A stretch of DNA of 64,000 nt, taken from IMG/VR virus record IMGVR_UViG_3300045988_154248; one strand, given 5' to 3'. Below are positions 2,068 to 45,083 of this stretch, one piece after another (within the stretch, counting starts at the first letter, position 1; each line of letters begins with the position of its first letter). The stretch comes from a virus. Both the position numbers and the translations under genes were made by a program. The notes beneath the pieces were generated by a model, which worked only from the letters and a program-made list of their open reading frames with translations, was not told the origin of the DNA and searched no databases.

Positions 2068-4581
2068 ATGGCAGGTATTAATGTACCTCAGTATGAGATT
2101 TTTAAAATTGGAACAGATAAATTAAAATATTCTAAATGGAATTTGAATATTGATAAAAAAGAAGCATTTAAATACCAAGAATCTGTTTCATTATTTGAAG
2201 GTCAGCAATTTCGAATTATGGCAAAGAAAATCATGAAGAAAGCAAAATGGAAATGTGATTTTTCGAAACTTTTTATGCAAGTCGTTATTGATCAGAAAAC
2301 AGATTTTGCAAGAGCGACAAACAGAAAAGGTGTTACTGTAAATGGTATAAATTATAGACGTTTTGTTGGAACAACAGGTGGTTTGAAGAATAATACTCTT
2401 CTATTTTGTAATTCGGAATACATAGATAAACTAAATGAATTATGTGAGTGTAGGCGAAACAAAGAAGTGCCATTAGTTCCAGCAAAATATGAAGCATATA
2501 AAGCGTTAACTTGCTCTGCATCGCAGCCAATTTGCGAACCACATGGAATTTTAGTTGTAAAAGATTGCATTACTCAATACGAAGATGATGTAATTTCTCT
2601 CGATAGTGGAGTTGGAGACGGTGAGCCAATTCGTGAAAAAAAACATAAAGTAATGGAAAATACAGTGTCTGATGGGTTTAATTTATGTACTATTGGATAC
2701 ATGCAAAGAGTTGCTGAATCTCTTGGATTAGATTATACTCCTGCAGGTGTATGTTTGCGAAATGCCTGGTTAAAAGGTATGCTCTATCCTTTCCCAATTA
2801 TAGAGTTTATTGAAAAATATAATGGTGGGAATTATTTTATCAAGGATATTTGGGGTAATGTGCAGGACATTCGAGAGTGTGAAATGATTCTCACGGAATC
2901 TTCATTGAAATTATGGTCGGCATATGAAAGTATTGACGAATATATTGCAGCATATAGAGAGTGTGGATATGAATTTGCAGTTACGAAAATTTCTCCTCAT
3001 ATCTTAGATGAAGAACGTGAATTAAATTATCAATATTTACAGTCTTATGAATTCACTGATGATGATATTAAAGAATTGTGTAATCCTACCATTCAGCATT
3101 TAAAAGATGCGATGTGTGGAAACTACGAATCCACTATTAAATTTCTTGGAATTAATGAAAATACAGACGTGAATTCATGGCAACGTGCATTATATACAAG
3201 CCAATATATGCTTGGCGATCCGTATATTATCGATTCAACTCATAGGTATATTAAGAAGAAAATAAATGATGCAAAAATTGGTAAATTAATTGTAAATGGT
3301 AATTATCAAATTGCTAGTGGTGATCCGTTTGCGTTAATGCAATCAATTTGTGGCCTAGAAATAACTGGCTTATTAAAAGCTGATCAATGCTACTCAAAAT
3401 TCTGGATTGACAAATCTGTAGATTCTGTAGTTATCTTTCGAAGTCCAATGACTTCTCACAATAATATTCGAAAATGCAATGTAATTTCAAATGAAGAGTG
3501 TTTGTATTGGTATCAGTATATGGATACTATTATGATTATCAATGCATGGGATTCTTTTTGTGTGGCGGAAAACGGTTGTGATTGGGATGGCGATCTTTTA
3601 TATTCAACCAATAATAAAGTCTTACTTCGTTGTTTTAGAAAACTATTAGCAATTGAATGTGTTCAAAGAAAAGCCAATAAGATTATTATTAATGAAAAAG
3701 AAGTCAAAAAAACAAATAAAAACGGCATGGGAAATCAGGTTGGACAGATTACAAACCGTGTTACTTCGATGATCGAAGTTTTGTCACGATTTGAAGAGGG
3801 GTCTAATGAATATAATGATTTATTATATCGTATTGAATGTGGACAGCTTCACCAACAGGATGAATTGGATAAAATCAAAGGAATTATTGCAAAGCCAATG
3901 GCAAAATATTGGTATAATCTTGGTGCTTGTAAAGATAATCATTATTTACAATCAATTTGTGCTTATCGAAAACCGTATTTTATGATCTATATTTATGATG
4001 AGATTAAACGTAAGTATAAGAACTATATCAAGGAAAGCGAGATAAAATGCGCTGCATTATATGATTGCAGTATTCAAGATTTATATAGTAAAAAGGATAA
4101 TTTAACTGACGAACAAAAAGATTTTTTATTTTGGTATGAGTATAAAATGCCGGTTGGCATTGGAGCTTGTGCAATGAATAAAATCTGCTGGTATGTTGAA
4201 AGTCAATTAGACGGATATAAATCACAATTACATCATGATTCTACTTTTGATTACAATCGTTTAAAAGTTAAACGTCGATGTACAGAAGAACATCGGAAAG
4301 CTTTACATGATCTTGAACAAGAGTATCGTGAATGTATTAAGGAGTATAAAGCAAACAGGTCTTCCGACAAAGAACAATCAAATAATAACAGAAAATATTT
4401 ATGCGAAAAATTTAGGCAAGCGGCTATTGAACTTTGCCCAAATGATGAAGAGCGCATGAATATTATCCTTGATATCACCTATGGTTATAAGGGAAATCGA
4501 CAGTTTTGTTGGGACTGTATTGGTGACTTGCTTATTAAACGTTTGGAAGAAATGGAGAATGAAAATGTATATACTGAATGA
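2068..4581 (+). CDS. YonO-like / RdRP-like single-subunit two-barrel RNA polymerase (putative)
   Basis: 837 aa from ATG 2068 (GGAGG at 2051-2055). Contains FRSPMTSHNNIRK followed by ENGCDWDGDLLYS, i.e. the DxDGD metal loop of YonO/QDE-1-type polymerases. Size is similar to SPbeta YonO. Confidence 0.5.
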   Translation: MAGINVPQYEIFKIGTDKLKYSKWNLNIDKKEAFKYQESVSLFEGQQFRIMAKKIMKKAKWKCDFSKLFMQVVIDQKTDFARATNRKGVTVNGINYRRFVGTTGGLKNNTLLFCNSEYIDKLNELCECRRNKEVPLVPAKYEAYKALTCSASQPICEPHGILVVKDCITQYEDDVISLDSGVGDGEPIREKKHKVMENTVSDGFNLCTIGYMQRVAESLGLDYTPAGVCLRNAWLKGMLYPFPIIEFIEKYNGGNYFIKDIWGNVQDIRECEMILTESSLKLWSAYESIDEYIAAYRECGYEFAVTKISPHILDEERELNYQYLQSYEFTDDDIKELCNPTIQHLKDAMCGNYESTIKFLGINENTDVNSWQRALYTSQYMLGDPYIIDSTHRYIKKKINDAKIGKLIVNGNYQIASGDPFALMQSICGLEITGLLKADQCYSKFWIDKSVDSVVIFRSPMTSHNNIRKCNVISNEECLYWYQYMDTIMIINAWDSFCVAENGCDWDGDLLYSTNNKVLLRCFRKLLAIECVQRKANKIIINEKEVKKTNKNGMGNQVGQITNRVTSMIEVLSRFEEGSNEYNDLLYRIECGQLHQQDELDKIKGIIAKPMAKYWYNLGACKDNHYLQSICAYRKPYFMIYIYDEIKRKYKNYIKESEIKCAALYDCSIQDLYSKKDNLTDEQKDFLFWYEYKMPVGIGACAMNKICWYVESQLDGYKSQLHHDSTFDYNRLKVKRRCTEEHRKALHDLEQEYRECIKEYKANRSSDKEQSNNNRKYLCEKFRQAAIELCPNDEERMNIILDITYGYKGNRQFCWDCIGDLLIKRLEEMENENVYTE

Positions 4582-5599: not shown

Positions 5600-6590
5600 T
5601 TATGTTTTATTTTTTACTGGCAGATATAATAGTTTGCCAGTATTATCGCGGGATATGCTGGATCGGTTCCACGAGAGATTCATGTTCTCTAAAGCTACGT
5701 TCGACTCGTAGTCCCGCAACTCGTGGCATAGCACAGATAGATGCGTGTGAGCGTATTAAAGGCGAATTTACAACTCGTCGCCATGAAAATTGGTCAATCT
5801 ATGCAAAACTAACATCCCAGGCACTCAAAAAGTGCTGTTTCATACCGGTAAAACGAGTAAGTCCTGTGTGGAAATAGTGTCAGGAAATAGGGAGTAACAA
5901 GGTGATTCAGGGGCAACCGCTGAGAATCATTTTTCTGCGCAACAGAATAGCTCACGCGAACCTATGAAGATATGATGGGGAATTAGGAGGATATATAGTG
6001 CGAGTCCTTATTAGACAAGTGCGATGTCCATTTGGGTAAGTGAATTGGTAGAGATGCCAAATTAGCTTATGCAGGATGCGAGTAGGGATTATAACCGAAA
6101 GCTACGAAGGCGTGATGGATTTTGTTATCCAAAAGATAACGAAACATCTGGTGCAGCGCGTCTTCTGTATTCAATTTCGTTTCTATTAATTAGTATATTC
6201 AGGAAGAATGTAAAAATTGGTTTGATGCAAAAGGTAAACAAATTATAAAGCGAAAGTCTGTACCTCTGTATGGTGTAAGCAGCCAAAATGTGTAATCTCT
6301 TTTGAGGTAATACACACACTGAAAGATACGCAATATCTGGATGTGTTAAGCGGATTCTGCACAGTTCTCTTAGCGGAGATTTATAGCACGGCAGTGTTAA
6401 TGGAACGATGAAACTTGAGTAGTCATACAGCAAAGAAGATAAGCCTCTTCTCAAAAGGCGGTTGTGGAAGATACTATATGTGTGCGCAAGCAACATATAG
6501 TGGATAACCGAAGAAAAAATAATGTCGGTAAAGGTTTCTGAAAATACGTATAATCTCAGCGTATTTATTTTGCTACTTCTGTAGCATTAT
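5600..6590 (+). ncRNA. large structured non-coding region (candidate ROOL/GOLLD-class RNA; strand uncertain)
   Basis: About 1 kb with no credible ORF and visibly more G+C than its flanks. Many local hairpins and GNRA-like loops (e.g. TACTGGCA..TGCCAGTA at 5617-5645, ccGAAAgc). Immediately 5' of a tRNA. Confidence 0.35.
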
Positions 6591-6664
6591 TGCGGTGTAG
6601 CTCAGTTGGTGAGAGCATTCGGCTTATATCCGAACGGTCGTGGGTTCGAGTCCTACCACCCCAA
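6591..6664 (+). tRNA. tRNA-Ile (anticodon TAT)
   Basis: Manual cloverleaf: D arm GCTC/GAGC, anticodon stem TTCGG/CCGAA with loop CTTATAT, T arm GTGGG-TTCGAGT-CCTAC. One C:C mismatch in the acceptor stem. Confidence 0.8.
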
Positions 6665-6705
6665 CTATTTATCTTTGTTGTATACAAAGAAATTTAAAAC
6701 GAAAG

Positions 6706-6894
6706 GTGTGTATTAATATAGTACTCATTACTAAACAAGAGAAAGAATATTTAGTAAAGCATGGAGTTCCTTATGCGGAAGGCGGCGTATCCCATTCGGA
6801 ATCATGTCATAAACGTAAAAAATTCTATTTGTGTGAGACTTCTCATAATATGAGACTACTCGAAAATTATAGAAAAAAATTATATCATCGCTAA
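6706..6894 (+). CDS. hypothetical small protein
   Basis: The listed ORF 6640-6894 starts inside the tRNA. GTG 6706 (or a nearby start) after GAAAGG is more plausible. Confidence 0.3.
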   Translation: MCINIVLITKQEKEYLVKHGVPYAEGGVSHSESCHKRKKFYLCETSHNMRLLENYRKKLYHR

Positions 6895-6927
6895 TGCGAA
6901 ATTTAATGAGAAAGGTGGTTTGGAGCC

Positions 6928-8139
6928 ATCAAAACTAAATTTTATGATACTAACGCTCTTCTATTACTACAGGATAAAATTTTAGAAGACAGTTTTTACA
7001 TTAGTTCTACTACTCTAGAAGAACTAGAAAACATTAAAACAAGTTCTCGAAAAGATGAAGAGACAAAATACAAAGCAAGAAAATTATTACATATTTTAGA
7101 TGAAAATGATGATAAATATAAAGTTGTTATTACCACCAAAGATATTATCTCAATTATAGATGCTTTTGGATTAGAAAACACTCCTGATAATCAGATTTGT
7201 GCATGTGCATATTCTACTCCTGATATTTTATTTATTACAAACGATATTTCTTGTAAAACCATTGCAAAATGGATTTTTGGATTAGATGTTTCCAGTATTT
7301 CTACTATTCAAGAAGATCTATATAAAGGATATAGAGATATTACATTGTCTGAAAATGATATGGCATATTTCTATGAACATTTAAATGAAAATGTTTTCAA
7401 TTTATTAACAAATGAATATGTTATTATTCGAAATGCAGACAATGAAGTTGTAGATAAATTAAAATGGGATGGCGGAATGTATCAGACTATTAGAAATAAA
7501 CCATTTAAATCTAATATGTTTGGTACATTAAAACCATTAGACGACATTCAATCATTCGCTATGGATTCGATTAATACAAATGACATTACCGTATTGTATG
7601 GTAAAGCTGGTAGTGGTAAAACTACTCTTCCGCTTAATTATATCATGCAAGAAATCGAAAAAGGAAAATATAAAAAATGCTATATGGTTTACTCTTATGA
7701 ACCATTAAAAGGAGCAAAAACTCTCGGCTACGAAAAGGGTGATCATGTCACAAAATTGATCTATTCTGCATCTATCGGAAATATTTTAGCATCAAAATTT
7801 GGCGATCTACAGCAAGTTGAATACATGCTTGATCGTGGAATGCTAGATATTATTCCAACTGCAAATATTCGAGGTGTCGAATTTGAATCTGATAGCATCT
7901 GTATGGTTACAGAAAGTCAGAATTTGGATGTTTATACTCTAAAAACAATTATTCAACGTTGTAAATCTGGATGTAAACAAATATATGAGGGTGACATTAT
8001 TGAACAAAAGGATACAAACGTCCAAAATGTTGGTATTAATAGACTGATTGACGTATTCAAAGGACATAAAAGCTTTGGGTGTGTCAAACTTAAAAATAAT
8101 TACAGATCTGAATTGAGCGAATTAGCAGATTTGATGTAA
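6928..8139 (+). CDS. PIN-domain + PhoH-like ATPase (YlaK-like)
   Basis: Walker A GKAGSGKTT lies in track ORF 7345-8139. The same frame is open back to 6910 and encodes a PIN-like N-terminus (IKTKFYDTNALLLL...). No ATG/GTG/TTG is available; ATC 6928 sits 9 nt after AAAGGTGG. Confidence 0.65.
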   Translation: MKTKFYDTNALLLLQDKILEDSFYISSTTLEELENIKTSSRKDEETKYKARKLLHILDENDDKYKVVITTKDIISIIDAFGLENTPDNQICACAYSTPDILFITNDISCKTIAKWIFGLDVSSISTIQEDLYKGYRDITLSENDMAYFYEHLNENVFNLLTNEYVIIRNADNEVVDKLKWDGGMYQTIRNKPFKSNMFGTLKPLDDIQSFAMDSINTNDITVLYGKAGSGKTTLPLNYIMQEIEKGKYKKCYMVYSYEPLKGAKTLGYEKGDHVTKLIYSASIGNILASKFGDLQQVEYMLDRGMLDIIPTANIRGVEFESDSICMVTESQNLDVYTLKTIIQRCKSGCKQIYEGDIIEQKDTNVQNVGINRLIDVFKGHKSFGCVKLKNNYRSELSELADLM

Positions 8140-8157
8140 GAAAGGATTTATATATTA

Positions 8158-8337
8158 GTGATTAAAAAATTTGATAAAGAATACAGTACTCAATACGTAC
8201 CTGAGATGAAATATCTTCAATCAAAAGGTATTGAATATTCTTTTGTAAAAGATATTCAAGGAGTGACGACATATAAATATACGAAGACACCAGAGTTATT
8301 TTTGGCTTTGGTGTCTTTTTATATGGAAAATAAATAA
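8158..8337 (+). CDS. small protein (59 aa), DUF5659-like; paralog of 43110-43286
   Basis: GTG start. Absent from the ORF track because it is under 60 aa. Protein is essentially identical to 43110-43286 (KFDKEYSTQYVPEMKYLQSKGIEYSFVKD...TPELFLALVSFY). Confidence 0.5.
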   Translation: MIKKFDKEYSTQYVPEMKYLQSKGIEYSFVKDIQGVTTYKYTKTPELFLALVSFYMENK

Positions 8338-8373
8338 AAATACGAAAGGATAAATAATAGGTGATAAATAATG
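8164..8373 (+). repeat. 210-bp direct repeat, copy A (1 mismatch to 43113-43322)
   Basis: Read directly. Identity runs through the small ORF, the intergenic RBS and the ATG of the downstream endonuclease gene. Confidence 0.9.
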
Positions 8374-9360
8374 AGCCAAAAAAGAATTTATTCAAAAGAT
8401 GAAACTGAATTAATGCTTGAAATGTACAAAGATGGAGAAACATATTCGGACATAGGGAAAGCTTTACATACTAAAGCACAAAAAGTTTCAAAATATTTAA
8501 AAGAACTGGGGTATGGCGTCAGGCCACATAACCAATTAAAAAATCATGAATATTTATCTGCATCACGAAAAAACTCTTTAAATGAAAATTTCTTTAAAAC
8601 TATTGATACAGAATCAAAGGCCTATTGGCTTGGATTTTTATATGCAGATGGATATATATGTAAAAAGTATGATAAATCGGGGCATGAAAAAGGTGGATCA
8701 GTAGAGTTAACTTTAAAATCAGATGATAAATATCATATTCAAAATTTTTTAAGTGATATACAATCTACTGCGCCGATTGCAGATAGGAAAATAAAATTAA
8801 ATGGTAAAGAATATTTTGCAAACAGAGCTTGTATAACGTCTATTAAAATGGTGAATGATTTAATTAGTCATGGATGCGTAGAAAATAAATCTTTGATTTT
8901 AGAACCACCTACCTCTGTTCCTGATGGTTTAATTTCGCACTTTATACGCGGATACTTTGATGGCGATGGATGTGTATGTTTTTATCCTGAAAACTATTCA
9001 TATACGTATAGTATATTGGGTACTAAAGCATTTCTTGAGTTTGTTGCAACCAAAGCACAATTACCGTCTTTTAATATTATCTCTTTTGAACACAAAAAAT
9101 GTTATGAATTAAGAACTCATTCCAAAAAATCAGCAGAATTATTTCATAATTACATTTATAAAGACAAAACAATTTATCTCGAAAGAAAATATCAAAAATC
9201 TCTTGCGATGATGAAGTGGTGTTTTATGGAAGATAATAGAACTGAAACACAGAAAATAGCAGATTTATTAGACGATATGTTATTTTTTGATGATAGTAAT
9301 ATAGAAAATTTTATAAAGTATGTCAAGAACACCCGTGACTTTAGTCATGGGATGAATTGA
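8371..9360 (+). CDS. LAGLIDADG homing endonuclease with N-terminal HTH
   Basis: Two LAGLIDADG motifs: WLGFLYADGY and IRGYFDGDGC. The last ~15 codons run into the IS left end. Confidence 0.85.
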   Translation: MSQKRIYSKDETELMLEMYKDGETYSDIGKALHTKAQKVSKYLKELGYGVRPHNQLKNHEYLSASRKNSLNENFFKTIDTESKAYWLGFLYADGYICKKYDKSGHEKGGSVELTLKSDDKYHIQNFLSDIQSTAPIADRKIKLNGKEYFANRACITSIKMVNDLISHGCVENKSLILEPPTSVPDGLISHFIRGYFDGDGCVCFYPENYSYTYSILGTKAFLEFVATKAQLPSFNIISFEHKKCYELRTHSKKSAELFHNYIYKDKTIYLERKYQKSLAMMKWCFMEDNRTETQKIADLLDDMLFFDDSNIENFIKYVKNTRDFSHGMN

Positions 9361-9453: not shown

Positions 9454-9855
9454 ATGGAAGTGACTCATGGTCGTGGATATGTATATTCGATACAATATCA
9501 TATTGTTTGGTGTGTTAAATACAGACACAAAATAATTACAGAAAAAATAGAGAATAGATTAATAGAGATACTTAATAAAATAGCTGATGATAATGGATTT
9601 CAAATATTAGAATGTAATACAGATAAAGACCATATTCATCTTCTCGTTAATTGTTCTCCGCAACATTATATCCCAGACATGATAAAAGCATTAAAAGGCG
9701 TGTCAGCAAGGTTACTTATGAAAGAATTTGGAGAAGAATTAAAAAGAAAATTATGGGGTGGTCACTTGTGGAATCCATCATATTTCGTGGCAACCGTATC
9801 AGAAAATACAGAAGAACAAATTAGAAAATATATTCAAAATCAGAAAAGAAAGTGA
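9454..9855 (+). CDS. tnpA: IS200/IS605 Y1 (HUH) transposase TnpA
   Basis: HUH motif (DHIHLLV), catalytic Tyr region (PSYFVATV) and typical ~130-aa size. Confidence 0.9.
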
Positions 9856-9865
9856 GGTGAAGTCA

Positions 9866-10969
9866 GTGGAAAAAGCTTATAAGTACAGGATTTATCCAAA
9901 TAAAAAGCAGAAAGAAATAATTGCAAAGACTTTTGGGTGTTGCAGATTTATATATAATAAGTATCTTGCAAAGCGAATTGAAATGTATGAACAGAATAAA
10001 GAAACATTTTCATATGTTCAATGTGCAAATGATATGAAGAAACTAAAATCAGAGTTAGAATGGCTTAAAGAAGTCGATTCTACTGCTCTTCAATCTTCAC
10101 TTAAAGATTTAGATTCAGCTTATCAAAAATTCTTTAAAGAACACACAGGATATCCTAAGTTCAAATCAAAGAAAACACATAGATTTTCTTATAAATCAAA
10201 GTGTGTAAATGGCAATATTCAGTATTGTGATAAATATATTAAGTTACCTAAACTTGGAATGGTAAAAACGAAAAACAAGTTAGTACCAAAAGGAATGATT
10301 CTTAATGCTACTGTGTCACAAGAACCAAGTGGCAAATATTATGTGTCAATTTGTTGTACTGATATTGATATTCAACCACTAAATAAAACTGGTAATAACA
10401 TTGGTATTGATTTAGGCATTAAAGAATTTTGTATTACAAGTGATGGAGAATTAATTCCAAATCCACATTACTTAAAGAAGTCTTTAGATAAACTTGCTAA
10501 GTTACAAAGAGAATTATCTCGAAAATCAAAAGGTAGTTCTAATCGTAATAAAGCAAGAATAAAGGTTGCAAGACTTCAGGAACATATTGCAAATCAGAGA
10601 AAAGATTTCTTGCATAAGTTATCTACTGAAACAATCAGAAGTAATGATATTGTATGTATCGAAGACCTTCAAGTAAAGAATATGATTAAAAATCATAAAC
10701 TTGCACAGTCTATCGCAGATGTATCATGGTCTGAATTTGTAAGACAACTTGAATATAAAGCAAATTGGTATGGTAAACAAGTTGTGAAAGTAGATAAATT
10801 CTATGCAAGTTCTCAAACTTGTAATGTATGTGGGTATATAAATAAGGATACAAAAAATCTTTCAGTAAGAGAATGGGAATGTCCTTGTTGTCATACACAT
10901 CATGACAGAGATATGAACGCAGCCATCAATATTCTTAATGAAGGATTGAGAATATTAGAAGTGGCATAG
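9866..10969 (+). CDS. tnpB: TnpB (OrfB) RNA-guided nuclease
   Basis: [10 protein letters not shown]-terminus; RuvC motifs [28 protein letters not shown]; zinc finger CNVCGY...[11 protein letters not shown] 9866 follows GAGGTGA. Confidence 0.9.
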
Positions 10970-11071
10970 ACGAATAAAGAACGGTAGGAACTATCGGGAT
11001 AGCTTGGTAAATATCTTTTCAGTAGAAATGAGTTCCCAAGAATCTCGTGGCTTTAGCCATGAGAGGTTCAA
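10860..11071 (+). ncRNA. putative TnpB omega/reRNA scaffold (extent approximate)
   Basis: By analogy with characterised IS200/IS605 TnpB systems, the guide scaffold overlaps the tnpB 3' end and stops at the RE. The region contains the RE hairpin and other stems. Confidence 0.4.
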
Positions 11072-11150
11072 ATGTGATTCATATAAAACAGAACGAAGTG
11101 AAACTGCAGCTATGGCAGATTTATTAGATTAATCCTTTTATGGAAATATT

Positions 11151-20047: not shown

Positions 20048-20111
20048 GGAGTAGGAAACCAGAGAAGTCATGAGCTTTGGCATAGTAGACACTCGCACTA
20101 CTCTCCTACTC
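20048..20111 (+). promoter_or_regulatory. two-hairpin motif with GAAGTCATGAGC loop, copy B (upstream of the HNH gene)
   Basis: P1 GAGTAGGA/TCCTACTC. Hairpin 1 CCAGA-[GAAGTCATGAGC]-TTTGG. Hairpin 2 AGTAG-acactcgca-CTACT. Stems covary with copy A and the loop is identical. Confidence 0.5.
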
Positions 20112-20150
20112 TTTTTTAATTGTTATGCGAGTGGAAAGCGAGAAATAAAA

Positions 20151-21407
20151 ATGGGATATACTCATGGAACAAGTATTGAATCAAAAACAAGAATTTGTAC
20201 AAAATGTGGAAAAGAATTCCCGAATACAAATAAATTCTTTTCTTATGCAAATAAAAAACTTGGACGATTAAATGCTTTATGTAAAGAATGTCAAAAAATA
20301 ATTAGTAAAGAAAAGCGCCTGAAGATTATTGAGAAAAATAAAAATAAAGATTTATTTTATTCAGGGACACGACATTGTAAAAAATGCAATAGAGATTTAC
20401 CAAATAATAAATTATATTTTCCTATCGATCTATCTTGTATTGATGGTTTAAGAAATGTATGTAGAGAATGCAGCAAAAAGGAATCTGGTTTTCTTGATCC
20501 CAATTATACAGTTTCCGAAAAATGGACGGATGAAGAAAATAATGTATTGTTAGAAAAATATAAAGATTTTACTGGCGAAGAATTGCATAATTTATTTTTG
20601 CCAAATAGAACCGTTAGATCTATAGAATGTCATGCAGCGCTTCTTGGTCTGCAAGGCAAGAATTACGATGCACAAGTTAGAGCTAATTTGTCTAGAAGTA
20701 TAAAAAATAGTGAAAAGTTGAAAGGGCGAGCATTATCTGAAGAATCCAGAAAGAAAATTTCTGAAACAAAAAGAGAATATTTTAAGACTCATAATGGATG
20801 GTGGAAAGGTAAAAGACGTAGCCCAGAACAATGCAAAATGATAAGCGAAAGGCAAAAGGGAAAATGGGCTGGAGATAAAAATCCAAGACATTTAAATCCA
20901 TTAGTTGGCGAAGAAAATGGTCGTTGGAAAGGTGGAATTAATTCTACTTATGTCGAGTTAAGATCTGATACAAAAAGTTGGTTCAATGATTCAATGGGAT
21001 TTTGTAATTATAAATGTGTTATAACTGGCGGTGAATTTGATAATGTACATCATACAACAGCATTTAGAGATATCGTTGATGAAGTTTTTAAAATAACAGG
21101 AATAGAAGTAAAACAGCAAGTATGTGATTATAACAAAGAAGATTTCGATGAATTAAGATTAACATTAAAAGATTTGCATATGTTATATGGGTATGGAGCA
21201 TGTATAAACAAAGAGGTACATAAATTATTCCATGACAATTATGGATATACAAAATTCTCTCCATTTGACTTTTTGGATTTTTTATACAGAATCGATACTG
21301 GAGAATTTGATACTTGGTTCACGGAAAATAATTTGAAAATAAATATAAATTATGAATATGTAGAATATTTAGAAAGCACTTTGTCAGTTCTTGCGGAAAG
21401 TGCTTAA
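20151..21407 (+). CDS. HNH homing endonuclease with NUMOD3-like repeats and N-terminal zinc ribbons
   Basis: Two CxxC...CxxC modules (CTKCGKEF..CKECQK; CKKCNRDL..CRECSK). Repeated S.E.R.KIS/GK..G NUMOD-like motifs. HNH core NVHHTTAF...NKEVHKLFH. The ATG 20070 extension lies inside the structured motif. Confidence 0.8.
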   Translation: MGYTHGTSIESKTRICTKCGKEFPNTNKFFSYANKKLGRLNALCKECQKIISKEKRLKIIEKNKNKDLFYSGTRHCKKCNRDLPNNKLYFPIDLSCIDGLRNVCRECSKKESGFLDPNYTVSEKWTDEENNVLLEKYKDFTGEELHNLFLPNRTVRSIECHAALLGLQGKNYDAQVRANLSRSIKNSEKLKGRALSEESRKKISETKREYFKTHNGWWKGKRRSPEQCKMISERQKGKWAGDKNPRHLNPLVGEENGRWKGGINSTYVELRSDTKSWFNDSMGFCNYKCVITGGEFDNVHHTTAFRDIVDEVFKITGIEVKQQVCDYNKEDFDELRLTLKDLHMLYGYGACINKEVHKLFHDNYGYTKFSPFDFLDFLYRIDTGEFDTWFTENNLKININYEYVEYLESTLSVLAESA

Positions 21408-26168: not shown

Positions 26169-26345
26169 ATGAAAGAAAAGTTTTTAAAAACAACAGACAC
26201 TACTACCTCTGAAAACTTAAAGAAACTTGGATTTCAAGTAGTAAGTGAATTGAATGGAATGTATATATTTTTGAATACTGACAAACTTCAGTTTTCAAAT
26301 ATAGATAAATCAAAAATACAGTATAGCAATATACTTACTTTTTAG
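26169..26345 (+). CDS. 58-aa protein (possible distant relative of the 8158/43110/35270 small-protein family)
   Basis: GAGGTGG RBS then ATG: MKEKFLKTTDTTTSENLKKLGFQVVSELNGMYIFLNTDKL... Not in the track (under 60 aa). Confidence 0.35.
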   Translation: MKEKFLKTTDTTTSENLKKLGFQVVSELNGMYIFLNTDKLQFSNIDKSKIQYSNILTF

Positions 26346-35181: not shown

Positions 35182-35195
35182 TATATGAGAATTAT

Positions 35196-35240
35196 AGGGG
35201 TACGTATATATCAATTATACGCACCCCTATTTTTTACGCT
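35196..35240 (+). terminator. rho-independent terminator
   Basis: GGGGTACGTATA-tatcaat-TATACGCACCCC followed by TATTTTTT. Confidence 0.65.
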
Positions 35241-35269: not shown

Positions 35270-35455
35270 ATGAAGTTTGACAAAGAATACGCGACTTCTT
35301 TTGTTGACGAGTATAAATATCTAAAAGAATACGGTATTCGTTATGAATTCGTAAAGGTCGATGATACCGGAAAAACTGTTTGGAAATATAAAAAGACACC
35401 GGAATTATTTGAAGCATTGAAAAATTTTTACATCAACAATGAATATTATGATTAG
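35270..35455 (+). CDS. small protein, diverged paralog of 8158-8337 / 43110-43286
   Basis: MKFDKEYATSFVDEYKYLKEYGIRYEFVK...WKYKKTPELFEALKNFY aligns along its length with the repeated 59-aa protein. Confidence 0.5.
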   Translation: MKFDKEYATSFVDEYKYLKEYGIRYEFVKVDDTGKTVWKYKKTPELFEALKNFYINNEYYD

Positions 35456-35466
35456 CAGGTGTGACT

Positions 35467-36573
35467 ATGAAAATTTATTTAGATAATGCTGCCACTACTC
35501 CATTAAATCAAGAGACAAAAGATTATATTATATCTATTTTAGACGATTATTATAATCCATCCAGTGCTTATCAGGAAGGAAGAAATATTCGAAACAAGAT
35601 TAACGAAGCAAGAAAAAATATTGCTGATTTTATTCATGCAGATGAAAGTAATATTTTGTTTACTTCTGGAGGATCGGCTTCTAATGCGTTAGCAGTCAAA
35701 GGATATAAAGACCAAAATGACTGTGTTATTCTGTACTCTCCTATTGCACATAAATCAATTTTAAATTATGTAAAAACAGTTAGAAATGCTATTCCATTAA
35801 AAGTAGATACGCATGGATTTATTGATCTTATGGATTTGAAAGAATTGTTAGCTATATATAATAAAAGAAGTTTTGTAGTTATTGACTATGCCAATAGCGA
35901 GATAGGAACAATTCAATATGTAAAAAAGATAATTGATTTAGTCCATTTTTATAACGGGACAATTTATGTTGATTGTACTGGATCTATTAGTCAAATTCCA
36001 CTGGATGTCAAGAAATTGGATATTGATATTGCAGGGTTTTCTGCGCATAAATTAGGATCTTTAAAAGGGTGTGGGGTTTTATATAAAAAGGATAATATTC
36101 AATTGTCTCCTATTATATATGGTTCACAAGAACATGGACTTTTTGGTGGAACAGAGAACACACTTGGCATCTTAACTCTAGGATACGTTGTAAAGCATTA
36201 TAATTATGATCACTGTACATCAGAAAAACGAAATTATCTCGTGCAAACACTATCAGGATTAGTTCCAAATTTTTTTGTTGTTGGCTCTTATAATAATAGA
36301 CTACCATATAATTTATTTTTGTGTTTTGAAGGAGTATCTGGCGAAGCATTAATGACCTTACTTCATGAATATGGTGTAATTGTATCTACTGGGTCTGCTT
36401 GTAATTCCGGAAGTTTGAAATCATCTGATACCTTACTTGCCATCGGAATGAAAGAAAAATATATTCATAATGGTATCCGTTTAACTTTGTGCGGATCAGA
36501 AACAAAAGAAGAATTAGATTACATATGTAACCAAATAAAAAATTGTGTCATGACATTGAGGAACTTAACGTAG
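35467..36573 (+). CDS. cysteine desulfurase (NifS/IscS-like class V aminotransferase)
   Basis: MKIYLDNAATTP N-terminus, PLP-Lys motif FSAHKLGSLKG, active-site Cys loop GSACNSG. Confidence 0.8.
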   Translation: MKIYLDNAATTPLNQETKDYIISILDDYYNPSSAYQEGRNIRNKINEARKNIADFIHADESNILFTSGGSASNALAVKGYKDQNDCVILYSPIAHKSILNYVKTVRNAIPLKVDTHGFIDLMDLKELLAIYNKRSFVVIDYANSEIGTIQYVKKIIDLVHFYNGTIYVDCTGSISQIPLDVKKLDIDIAGFSAHKLGSLKGCGVLYKKDNIQLSPIIYGSQEHGLFGGTENTLGILTLGYVVKHYNYDHCTSEKRNYLVQTLSGLVPNFFVVGSYNNRLPYNLFLCFEGVSGEALMTLLHEYGVIVSTGSACNSGSLKSSDTLLAIGMKEKYIHNGIRLTLCGSETKEELDYICNQIKNCVMTLRNLT

Positions 36574-42718: not shown

Positions 42719-43109
42719 TGCCTGTATGTACAGAAATGTGCATAAGAGAACACATCTAAAACCAGTAAAACCTAATGCTCTATCACTACAATATGGATGA
42801 AACATGCTGATATGAATGTAACGAAAGTAAAACAACGATAGAGATTCTATATGGTCAAAAGCCTAAGTAGAAATTTTGCTAATTATTTTAAATTAGAAAT
42901 GGTAGCTTGGTCGCAAAGTCCCGAATAGGGATGTGTCAAACGAGTACCCCAACGTCAGGGGGGAGAAATCCTTAATGTAGGGCTTAATCGCTAAATGAAG
43001 TCTGAAATGGTGTGACTGCTATTATTCTTAAGATGAATAATGTGGTTAAAAAGTACTCTGATCTTATATGCGAGTATAAGAATTATTATTGAAAAGAGAA
43101 TTTTATTTT

Positions 43110-43286
43110 ATGAAAAAATTTGATAAAGAATACAGTACTCAATACGTACCTGAGATGAAATATCTTCAATCAAAAGGTATTGAATATTCTTTTGTAAAAG
43201 ATATTCAAGGAGTGACGACATATAAATATACGAAGACACCAGAGTTATTTTTGGCTTTGGTGTCTTTTTATATGGAGAATAAATAA
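43110..43286 (+). CDS. small protein (58 aa), near-identical paralog of 8158-8337
   Basis: MKKFDKEYSTQYVPEMKYLQSKGIEYSFVKDIQGVTTYKYTKTPELFLALVSFYMENK. Part of the 210-bp repeat. Confidence 0.5.
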   Translation: MKKFDKEYSTQYVPEMKYLQSKGIEYSFVKDIQGVTTYKYTKTPELFLALVSFYMENK

Positions 43287-43322
43287 AAATACGAAAGGAT
43301 AAATAATAGGTGATAAATAATG
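43113..43322 (+). repeat. 210-bp direct repeat, copy B (1 mismatch to 8164-8373)
   Basis: Read directly; the single difference is gagaat vs gaaaat near the small-ORF stop. Confidence 0.9.
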
Positions 43323-44687
43323 GCAAGACAAAAATATACATATGAACAAGTTTACAATGAATTTGACAAAAGAGGTTATGATTTAGTATCAGAAGAATAC
43401 CATAACGTTTCTGAACATCTGGAATATATCTGCAGAAAACATAAAGACAAAGGTATCCAGAAGATAACATTTTCAAAACTTCATTCAGTGAATAGAGGTT
43501 GTTATTATTGTGGTAGAGAACGAACTGAAAATGCGCATGTGAAAGAATTAGATCCTGAATATGACAAACAATTGTGTGAATCGAAAAATTTTACATATAT
43601 TGGATCGAGAAAAGAAAATCATATTTTTGTTATTGATTTTATTTGTAATAATCATAAAGATCTTGGGATTCAGTCTATGCGTCGCAATAATATGAAAAGG
43701 CAAATTAAAGGATGTCAGTATTGTTCAGGGAAAAATTTACCAGAATGGTATATTATGAAAAAGAAAGATGAAGTAAATCCAAATATTATATTAATTGATC
43801 CATATAAAAACATGACTACAAGAATGAAATGTCTTTGCAAGAAACATAATTTTTTGCATAATAAAACCATGCAGGAAATTTTAGGTGGAAAAGGTTGCTA
43901 TTATTGTGGTCTTGAAAAACTAAGTAAACAAATGTTTTTGTCAGATGATCAAGTCAATGAAAATATTCATAAGAAAAATCCACATGTTGATGTTATAAAA
44001 TATAATGGCGCAGATATTATTTCTGAATGGTACTGTAATAAGCACCAAAAATCATTCAGTAAGTGCTATGTTACTTTGCTTTATTGTGATAGTGGATGCG
44101 ATGAATGTTATAAAGAATTAATTAGAGATAGATATGGTTTGGGTCAGTTAGAGTTTAAGAAAAAAATAAAAGAAATTCATCCAACATTACAAGTTATAGG
44201 CAAATATATAAATAATACCACTCCAGTAGATTTATATTGTCAAAAACATGATTGTTATTTTTCAACAGATCCATCTTCTGCATACAAAAGATTATCTTGT
44301 TGTCCTAAATCTAGAGTCACTTATAAAGAAGAATATGTATGTAGTTTGTTAGAAAAATGGGGTTATTCTATTACTAGACAAAAGAAATTTGATGACTGTA
44401 AGGATAAAAACGTTCTTCCGTTTGATTGTTATTTAAATGATTTTAATGTATTGGTGGAATATGATGGAGAAGGGCATTACAAACCTGTAATGTTTGGAGA
44501 AGAATCCTATGAAGAAGCCGTAGAAAAATTTCATTATACGCAAAAACATGATCAAATGAAGAATGAATATTGTGAAGTAAATAATATTCCTCTTATTAGA
44601 ATTCCTTATTATGAGTTCGATGATGTAGAATATTATCTATATGATAATTTATGTAAACTTGGTGTTATAGAAGAAAATTTTCAATAA
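43320..44687 (+). CDS. intron-encoded endonuclease: five tandem zinc-finger modules + Vsr-like/PD-(D/E)XK (EDxHD-type) C-terminal nuclease domain
   Basis: Five repeats of C..(K/N)H...(~15-20 aa)...C..C (e.g. YICRKHKDKGIQ..GCYYCG; FICNNHKDLGIQ..GCQYCSG). C-terminus VLPFDCYL..NVLVEYDGEGHYKP....QKHDQMKNEYC..NIPLIRIPY resembles Vsr/DUF559-type nucleases as in I-Bth0305I-like enzymes. Confidence 0.6.
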   Translation: MARQKYTYEQVYNEFDKRGYDLVSEEYHNVSEHLEYICRKHKDKGIQKITFSKLHSVNRGCYYCGRERTENAHVKELDPEYDKQLCESKNFTYIGSRKENHIFVIDFICNNHKDLGIQSMRRNNMKRQIKGCQYCSGKNLPEWYIMKKKDEVNPNIILIDPYKNMTTRMKCLCKKHNFLHNKTMQEILGGKGCYYCGLEKLSKQMFLSDDQVNENIHKKNPHVDVIKYNGADIISEWYCNKHQKSFSKCYVTLLYCDSGCDECYKELIRDRYGLGQLEFKKKIKEIHPTLQVIGKYINNTTPVDLYCQKHDCYFSTDPSSAYKRLSCCPKSRVTYKEEYVCSLLEKWGYSITRQKKFDDCKDKNVLPFDCYLNDFNVLVEYDGEGHYKPVMFGEESYEEAVEKFHYTQKHDQMKNEYCEVNNIPLIRIPYYEFDDVEYYLYDNLCKLGVIEENFQ

Positions 44688-44747: not shown

Positions 44748-45083
44748 TTGATCGCCGGTAAAAATCAAGGCAATGTAATGAGCGCCCTTATGAGCCAGTA
44801 CGATATTGCTCGTCAAGCGCTTAATACTGCTATGAATGATTCCGAAGGCTCCGCCGAAAGGGAATTAACTAATTACCAAAAGGGTATCGATTACAGTCTT
44901 GAAAGATTCAAGGCTACATTTCAAGAATTTTCAACTTCTGTTCTATCATCAGACACTTTCAAGGCTGTCATAGATAGCGGAACACAATTCTTAGAAATTC
45001 TTACTAAAATTACTGAAACACTTGGGCCACTTGGCACAGCTTTAACAGCACTTGGTGGTTTCAAATTTATATCAAGCATAGGT
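44748..45083 (+). CDS. tail tape measure protein, exon 2 of 4
   Basis: LIAGKNQGNVMSALMSQYD... continues the TMP core. Ends ...GGFKFISSIG (GGT 45081-45083) immediately before TAG. Confidence 0.65.

Follow-up and report, generated by a model that had tools for sequence, protein, structure and literature searches.

Two copies of a small gene upstream of unrelated endonuclease genes

The viral DNA analysed here, a stretch of 64,000 nucleotides (nt) from the IMG/VR record IMGVR_UViG_3300045988_154248 that we call the window throughout, contains two nearly identical copies of a small open reading frame (ORF), each followed by a short leader and then by a gene for a nuclease of the homing-endonuclease type (Table 1). 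Copy 1 lies behind a PIN-PhoH gene (phoH), and copy 2 within an interruption of the tape-measure gene. A repeat search of the whole window returned this pair as one direct repeat of 213 nt (8161-8373 and 43110-43322, offset by 34,949 nt), by a wide margin its longest and best. Base-by-base reading of 210 nt (8164-8373 against 43113-43322) revealed a single difference, A at 8327 versus G at 43276, which is synonymous (GAA/GAG, Glu). The identity begins with the codons AAA AAA TTT, at the second or third codon of the small ORF, whose starts differ between the copies (GTG-ATT at 8158, ATG at 43110), and it ends with the G of the downstream ATG (8373 and 43322), beyond which the genes are unrelated to each other. 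Direct reading thus confirms the claim of an earlier interpretation made from the letters alone (hereafter the sequence-only reading), namely that a 210-bp repeat with one mismatch ends at the ATG of two unrelated endonuclease genes. A megablast search with 12 kb of the window against GenBank phages gave no match.

Near-perfect repeats of 210 nt are able to mislead short-read assemblers, and the same concern had accompanied the earlier interpretation. It is contradicted by independent contigs that hold each copy alone: copy 1 with its own flanks was found in the IMG/VR contig G002 and copy 2 with its own flanks in G003, each identical to the window across the module and its immediate flanks. 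Moreover, each junction is reproduced in contigs with one copy only (G002, G003, G001 and G004), and the same architecture recurs in hundreds of unrelated assemblies, so that we assign a negligible probability to the repeat being a collapsed or chimeric assembly product, or chance. A 35-kb deletion between the direct repeats, also envisaged earlier, is rejected as biologically irrelevant, because the interval appears from its ORF sizes to hold the head and packaging genes, and the product could only be a defective genome.

Table 1. Positions of the two cassettes and associated features in the window
Feature	Position	Strand	Basis or remarks
Small ORF, copy 1; 59 aa, GTG start, 18 nt past the phoH stop codon	8158..8337	+	family profile, tblastn
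Hairpin of copy 1 with U-run; 12-bp core AAGACACCAGAG / CTTTGGTGTCTT, codons 42-55	8284..8322	+	folding, covariation
Conserved leader AAATACGAAAGGATAAATAATAGGTGATAAATA with two Shine-Dalgarno-like motifs, up to the endonuclease ATG	8338..8370	+	predicted unstructured
LAGLIDADG homing endonuclease gene, 3' end replaced by insertion sequence (IS)	8371..9360	+	
Small ORF, copy 2; 58 aa, ATG start	43110..43286	+	
Hairpin and U-run of copy 2	43233..43271	+	extended fold 43226-43273, -25.7 kcal/mol
Conserved leader of copy 2	43287..43319	+	
Zn-ribbon nuclease gene, 455 aa	43320..44687	+	phrog_559, phrog_9084; weak DUF723 and DUF2726
Insert of 1.59 kb (20 nt, small ORF, leader, nuclease) in the terminal loop of tape-measure intron 1	43090..44681	+	
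Diverged paralogue, 61 aa, before the NifS-like gene (35461-36573)	35270..35455	+	61% identity
PIN-PhoH gene	6937..8139	+	allele unlike that of G001 and G003
IS200/IS605 element in the LAGLIDADG 3' end (TnpA 9454-9855, TnpB 9758-10969)	9316 to 11060-11072	+	
Remnant of the other phoH allele's 3' end (..KTERSETAAMADLLD, stop)	11088..11132	+	

Joint gain and loss at phoH and in the tape-measure intron

Three IMG/VR contigs close to the window (G001, G002 and G003; 97-100% nt identity in the shared flanks) were compared with it. The intron cassette is present in G003 (100% identical) and G001 (98-99%); in G002 the tape-measure intron loop is empty and reads ..AATTATTAT-CTGACT-CAATAATAATT.. where the window has its 1.59-kb insert. 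At the phoH locus, G001 and G003 carry another PIN-PhoH allele with clpP 18 nt behind it, and small gene, LAGLIDADG gene and IS are all absent. In G002, phoH, small gene and LAGLIDADG gene are 100% identical to those of the window, and the IS200/IS605 element is absent; its LAGLIDADG ORF is intact (334 aa), and it is the last ~20 codons of this ORF that the IS interrupts in the window. Given the empty loop in G002 and the phoH-clpP arrangement in G001 and G003, small gene and nuclease constitute one indel: they are gained and lost together. The PIN-PhoH allele of the window belongs to the segment that differs between the relatives together with copy 1. Furthermore, where relatives have an intact LAGLIDADG ORF, its C-terminus is encoded by what is left of the phoH allele that was displaced (..KTERSETAAMADLLD); as read from these alignments, such a remnant is the signature of cassette entry into the 3' end of phoH along with a replacement allele.

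Searches of the window with Rfam returned no group I intron, either at gathering or at E-value thresholds. An ORF-less sister intron of G002 (~540 nt) lies at window position 44886 in tape-measure exon 2 (L109 818-1072, minus strand), where the window is uninterrupted; its similarity to the 5' part of intron 1 is 76%, and it matches Intron_gpI below threshold (24.1 bits, E 0.0038; gathering score 50). Comparison with the uninterrupted window fixes its boundaries exactly: a U precedes the 5' splice site, the last base of the intron is G, and removal restores the exon reading frame. The exon junction of intron 1 was located to within a few codons. Based on the U/G boundaries and the sub-threshold match of this ORF-less intron, the host intron of copy 2 is a putative group I intron. 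The 200 nt of exon upstream of the second G002 intron are only 90% identical and look like a co-conversion tract. In the distant faecal phage MT835469 (L001), an extra tape-measure intron, which carries a gene for a 379-aa Zn-ribbon nuclease (2198-3337), is found upstream of the shared one.

Unrelated nucleases behind one small gene

The gene behind copy 1 matches LAGLIDADG_3 (26.5 bits, cut-off 22.5) and phrog_4645, and a single-sequence search identified relatives of it in G002 only. The nuclease behind copy 2, located inside the tape-measure interruption, had been described as zinc-finger/Vsr-like; the Zn-ribbon holds, and the Vsr-like part comes down to weak DUF2726 matches. A gene of the homing-endonuclease type was found 0-40 nt downstream of the small gene at 72 of the 80 IMG/VR loci at which this position was located and classified, a set biased towards one human-gut data set and in which some nucleases were classified by PHROG names or weak Pfam matches. 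Nucleases with Zn-ribbon and DUF2726 account for 44 loci, followed by Zn-ribbon with HNH (11), phrog_9084-type homing endonucleases (6), LAGLIDADG proteins (6; one further disrupted by an IS607-like element), HNH (PF01844) and GIY-YIG proteins (2 each) and HNH_3 (1). The other loci had a partial Zn-ribbon ORF at a contig end (1), a 249-aa protein with no function assigned (3), a NifS-like gene (1), and another ORF or none called (3). The Pfam domains of the relatives' nucleases also include DUF4379/CapR/DUF723 with DUF2726.

Contexts from ENA and Logan agree, as small gene and nuclease occur together in the tape-measure gene and after PIN-PhoH, and with the 72 loci they contradict the possibility, raised beforehand, that the small ORF is never found beside endonucleases elsewhere. 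For instance, the commonest variant looked up (P0065, 58 aa) lies in the interruption of a PhageMin_Tail (tape-measure) gene before a 451-aa DUF723/CapR/DUF4379 nuclease, while P0036 and P0029 directly follow a PIN-PhoH gene and precede a 372-aa DUF723-type nuclease and an HNH_3 nuclease, respectively.

Near-identical small genes are moreover combined with different enzymes. In the same intron, the loci L046 and L047 have small genes with 100% nt identity, followed by Zn-ribbon/HNH in one case and Zn-ribbon/DUF2726 in the other; L034 and L053 share 98% nt identity in the small gene, with HNH versus GIY-YIG; and window and G004 are 95% identical up to base 8373 and unrelated thereafter (LAGLIDADG versus a Zn-ribbon ORF). 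At the level of these alignments, nucleases of different families are shown to have been exchanged behind the same small gene.

Two further observations concern these nuclease genes. In contig IMGVR_UViG_3300045988_150026 (L045, ~3200-4000), an IS607-like MerR/serine-recombinase gene lies past the start of a LAGLIDADG gene behind the small ORF, which makes this the second case of an IS landing in a small-gene/nuclease cassette. The window itself has a 445-aa ORF at 20070-21407 with 28% identity (E 1e-17) to the middle region of those Zn-ribbon/HNH nucleases that follow the small gene in other phages, and no small gene upstream.

A conserved small protein with a DUF5659-like fold

By tblastn, the window contains exactly three members of the small-gene family: the two copies and the paralogue at 35270-35455. 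The family comprises at least 994 clusters at 90% identity in a profile search and 299 clusters at 50% in an exhaustive one, with few source names given (Eubacterium, Coprococcus). Among 34 copies, the median pairwise ratio of nonsynonymous to synonymous divergence (dN/dS) was 0.14 over 518 pairs, and by this measure the small ORF is a real protein gene under strong purifying selection.

An AlphaFold2 model built from 43 sequences has a pLDDT of 90.5 and a beta-alpha-beta-beta-alpha (E-H-E-E-H) topology. Among the Foldseek matches in BFVD were three DUF5659-annotated proteins (TM scores 0.79-0.87, probability 1.00); the top match overall (TM 0.89) has another annotation. The hidden Markov model (HMM) of DUF5659 (PF18903) matched 24 of 135 family representatives at E <= 0.01 (best 1.8e-5), and the paralogue reached 17.5 bits (E 0.0037), below the gathering score of 23.6 bits; the two window copies had no Pfam or PHROG match, and a PHROG search of the family gave none either. 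Taken together, a DUF5659-like fold is supported by the model, with a marginal link in sequence. The resemblance to DUF5659 proposed in the sequence-only reading is thus borne out by the predicted fold and weakly by sequence; its label 'winged-helix-like' does not fit the modelled topology, for which no significant PDB match was obtained (best E 0.31). PDB searches by sequence and by fold returned nothing significant for the small protein, and RRM- and ACT-like matches at E 0.3-1.7 were not used as evidence. Inspection of longer family members revealed no informative fusions, and in the literature searched we found no paper that mentions DUF5659.

Hairpin and leader

Codons 42-55 of the small gene form a predicted RNA hairpin that is followed by UUUUUAU (-25.7 kcal/mol, z = -8.8); the U-run occupies 8318-8322 in copy 1 and 43267-43271 in copy 2. 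In an alignment of 36 diverse copies, pairing holds for 89.8% of cells, and both partners have changed in 7 of the 12 pairs. The covariation score of 0.327, reached by none of 500 shuffles, compares with 0.04-0.11 in slid controls. The compensatory changes even alter the peptide (ALVSFY, ALESFY, ALEIFY, WLRIFY, LSSFY, LMIFY), and the hairpin codons have diverged less than the others at synonymous sites (0.33 versus 0.50). Hairpin and U-run therefore resemble an intrinsic terminator inside the last 13 codons, at which termination is predicted. A simple terminator scan missed it, as the scan was limited to loops of 3-8 nt and the core hairpin has a 10-nt loop as drawn.

The leader of ~30 nt that follows, with the consensus GAAAGGAT(A/T)AATAATAGGTGATAA and an ATG after 1-5 nt, is conserved before every nuclease type, and homology stops at the start codon. 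This region is predicted to be unstructured (-0.5 kcal/mol). To judge by sequence, both conserved blocks are complementary to the 16S rRNA at its 3' end; because this fully explains the motifs, a role of the leader as protein operator was rejected. A scan of the plus strand for sigma-70-type promoters between hairpin and nuclease start gave no match.

Probable recent conversion and the more distant copies

Copies at the phoH locus share the 5' junction GAAAGGATT.ATAT.TAGTGAT(T/A)AAAAAA with a GTG start, and copy 1 keeps this junction. Over its body, in turn, copy 1 shares 99% identity with the intron copies found in its lineage (window, G001, G003), compared with 84-87% for other phoH-locus copies. 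A single nuclease-type copy is present in the complete genomes G005 and G006 and in three incomplete contigs of other lineages. The 99.5% identity between the two window copies is most likely the result of recent ectopic gene conversion or recombination between phoH-locus and intron cassettes, a possibility that the earlier interpretation had raised as very recent gene conversion and that remains the best explanation, with conversion limited to the shared module: identity would stop at both start codons because conversion spans only the homology common to both cassettes. As each copy occurs alone in G002 or G003, the conversion would either predate the splits or have occurred between co-infecting relatives, and the window genome may be of the type ancestral to both, or else have arisen by recombination between G002- and G003-type genomes.

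The third copy proposed by the sequence-only reading is a real paralogue that directly precedes an aminotransferase class V (NifS-like) gene. It keeps the peptide motif KTPELF.AL..FY and has neither the hairpin nor the conserved leader. An exact-sequence look-up of the paralogue-like P0090 found an Aminotran_5 gene downstream, followed by a holin. In the window, the paralogue and the NifS-like gene (35270-36573) form a tight pair after a clear terminator (35195-35235) and before holin-like genes, and the pairing is repeated in the unrelated contigs L027 and L107. The suggested fourth member at 26169-26345 is dismissed, with an hhalign probability of 0.2% and only noise in tblastn.

Upstream of the phoH cassette, a full-length GOLLD RNA (Rfam RF02032, 193 bits, gathering score 150) was found at 6105-6562, its structured region probably beginning at about 5600, and a tRNA-Ile(TAT) lies just downstream (6591-6665); G001 and G003 match the tRNA region (6600-6920) at 97-98% identity. 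From ~6937 onwards the PIN-PhoH frame has no stop and shows homology to full-length relatives, with no ATG, GTG or TTG before the TTG at 7345. This gene may hence have an unusual start codon, or its PIN domain may be untranslated.

Discussion

We consider it probable that the repeat is the 5' half of a two-gene homing cassette of large phages and prophages of gut Firmicutes, that it serves as a low-dose expression adaptor, and that its two copies in the window were converted recently. The cassette sits either in the loop of the putative group I intron of the tape-measure gene or at the 3' end of phoH. The earlier notion of a mobile cassette is thereby strengthened, as small ORF and leader precede at least five endonuclease families in two contexts and are present or absent together with the nuclease. 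In our model, the cassette is probably read from the transcript of the host gene, because no sigma-70-type promoter was detected between hairpin and nuclease start; the hairpin would attenuate read-through into the nuclease gene, and the leader would let those transcripts that do read through be translated. Hairpin and leader would in this way make a portable low-dose adaptor for nucleases that are harmful when over-expressed. In addition, the small protein probably has its own role in controlling or assisting homing, a trans function that is to be expected because an adaptor acting in cis leaves the strong selection on the whole protein unexplained.

Several points weigh against this model. 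A terminator in the intron of an essential tail gene would also lower expression of tape-measure exon 2, and transcripts ending ahead of the stop codon of the small gene would be non-stop messages; the termination on which attenuation depends is itself a prediction from sequence. For a purely cis-acting adaptor, the protein-level selection is a difficulty. The small protein is near-neutral (net charge ~0), without a clear nucleic-acid-binding signature, and fold and sequence searches found no relative of known function. Moreover, among 80 loci of Zn-ribbon nuclease relatives, the small gene lies upstream in 17 and is missing in 63, and the 379-aa Zn-ribbon nuclease of MT835469 (2198-3337) has none; with so many nucleases lacking it, the module is not required by them. 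Finally, neither the direction of the conversion nor the cell in which it occurred can be fixed.

A broader version of the adaptor model, in which the DUF5659-like protein is a general accessory factor of homing endonucleases that controls dosage or promotes repair and copying, with hairpin and leader as its plug-in 5' adaptor, can be put forward only tentatively. Somewhat less credence is due to the in itself plausible view that the small gene is a selfish or neutral passenger in the co-conversion tract, whose transcription and ribosome-binding signals the nucleases exploit. The asymmetric association (the small gene is nearly always with a nuclease, the Zn-ribbon nucleases with the small gene in 17 of 80 cases) and the paralogues before non-nuclease genes (NifS, phrog_5329) speak for such a passenger, which would be expected to decay or to vary in arrangement. 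Instead, the small gene is under strong purifying selection, keeps a fixed orientation, position and spacing before unrelated nuclease families together with a conserved leader, and has a covarying hairpin that even forces amino-acid changes; we therefore regard the passenger view as unlikely.

Two further explanations appear improbable. One makes small gene and leader the DNA target of several endonuclease families, the copies being homogenised by nuclease-induced break repair. It would account for many nuclease families beside one very conserved sequence, in which the leader is more conserved than silent sites, and homing nucleases do typically cut conserved sequence near their own gene (PMC2988022). 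Nuclease-free alleles, however, lack the small gene as well (the intron loop of G002, phoH-clpP in G001 and G003), and no allele with the small gene only was seen at either site among the 80 loci. The phoH remnant at the end of the LAGLIDADG ORF points to phoH as the target instead, and different cleavage sites do not predict that all nuclease ORFs start at the same leader position. The other, to which we give still less weight, takes the small protein for an antitoxin-like inhibitor that binds and restrains the downstream nuclease as in a type II toxin-antitoxin pair, in keeping with the order of small gene and nuclease in one operon and with the single family representative of 135 that also matches the HicA_toxin model. 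Such an inhibitor is contradicted by the range of enzymes (LAGLIDADG, HNH, GIY-YIG and PD-(D/E)XK-type) that one near-invariant 58-aa protein would need to restrain, by nucleases of unrelated families standing behind small genes that are identical or nearly so, and by paralogues that precede non-nucleases.

The usual view of homing endonuclease genes is that of minimal selfish elements consisting of one gene, and their regulation has been worked out mainly in T4. The module described here is a widespread, conserved second component of homing endonuclease cassettes in human-gut phages. In the literature searched, no description of a small-gene/hairpin/leader module was found; what is new is that nuclease genes have a conserved partner which encodes a protein and, in the same frame, an RNA element, and which extends across LAGLIDADG, HNH, GIY-YIG and Zn-ribbon/PD-(D/E)XK-type nucleases and is common to intron-borne and free-standing cassettes. 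If the module sets nuclease dosage or assists homing, it would provide the first functional context for DUF5659-like proteins, explain the swapping of unrelated nucleases at one site, and represent a compact natural expression adaptor for toxic nucleases. Besides, concerted evolution between dispersed cassettes is documented, and the natural series of filled and empty sites could be used for homing experiments.

Our model is reminiscent of the T-even phages, in which cassettes with homing endonuclease genes commonly lack a promoter and are kept in check by terminators and RNA hairpins (PMC2988022). As in I-TevI, I-TevII, I-TevIII, mobE, segB and seg43(25) (PMC2988022), the nuclease gene would depend on host gene transcription, and a stable hairpin, sometimes with poly(U), lies just upstream of or inside the cassette and is followed by a consensus ribosome-binding site. 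In seg43(25), the hairpin likewise stands upstream of the ribosome-binding site without sequestering it (PMC2988022). In contrast to these systems, the hairpin here falls within the codons of a distinct, conserved protein gene, which moves together with the nuclease, one module serves at least five nuclease families at two loci, and neither an autorepression operator nor a late promoter was identified.

The phoH cassette with its divergent neighbour allele resembles free-standing nucleases that spread together with flanking markers, such as SegB of T4 (PMC2330249) and those at the exchange boundaries of ICP1 (PMC10448857), in that the end of its nuclease ORF is what is left of the displaced allele and the cassette marks a mosaic boundary between close relatives. 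It differs from them by the conserved accessory small gene in the unit, which is shared with an intron-borne cassette. With regard to DUF5659 (PF18903), known from small phage and Firmicutes proteins, the likeness consists in the predicted fold and in weak HMM matches for part of the family, whereas both near-identical window copies lack a Pfam match and the paralogue stays under the gathering score. Lastly, the putative group I intron of the tape-measure gene can be compared with those known from the same gene in Bacillus cereus-group prophages (PMC2504315). Its ORF-less sister in G002 follows a U of the 5' exon, ends with G and matches Intron_gpI below threshold, and the intron itself carries its nuclease ORF in a peripheral loop, as do these and other ORF-carrying phage group I introns. 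Unlike in those introns, the loop here holds two genes as one indel, and in a close relative the same loop is empty and 6 nt long.

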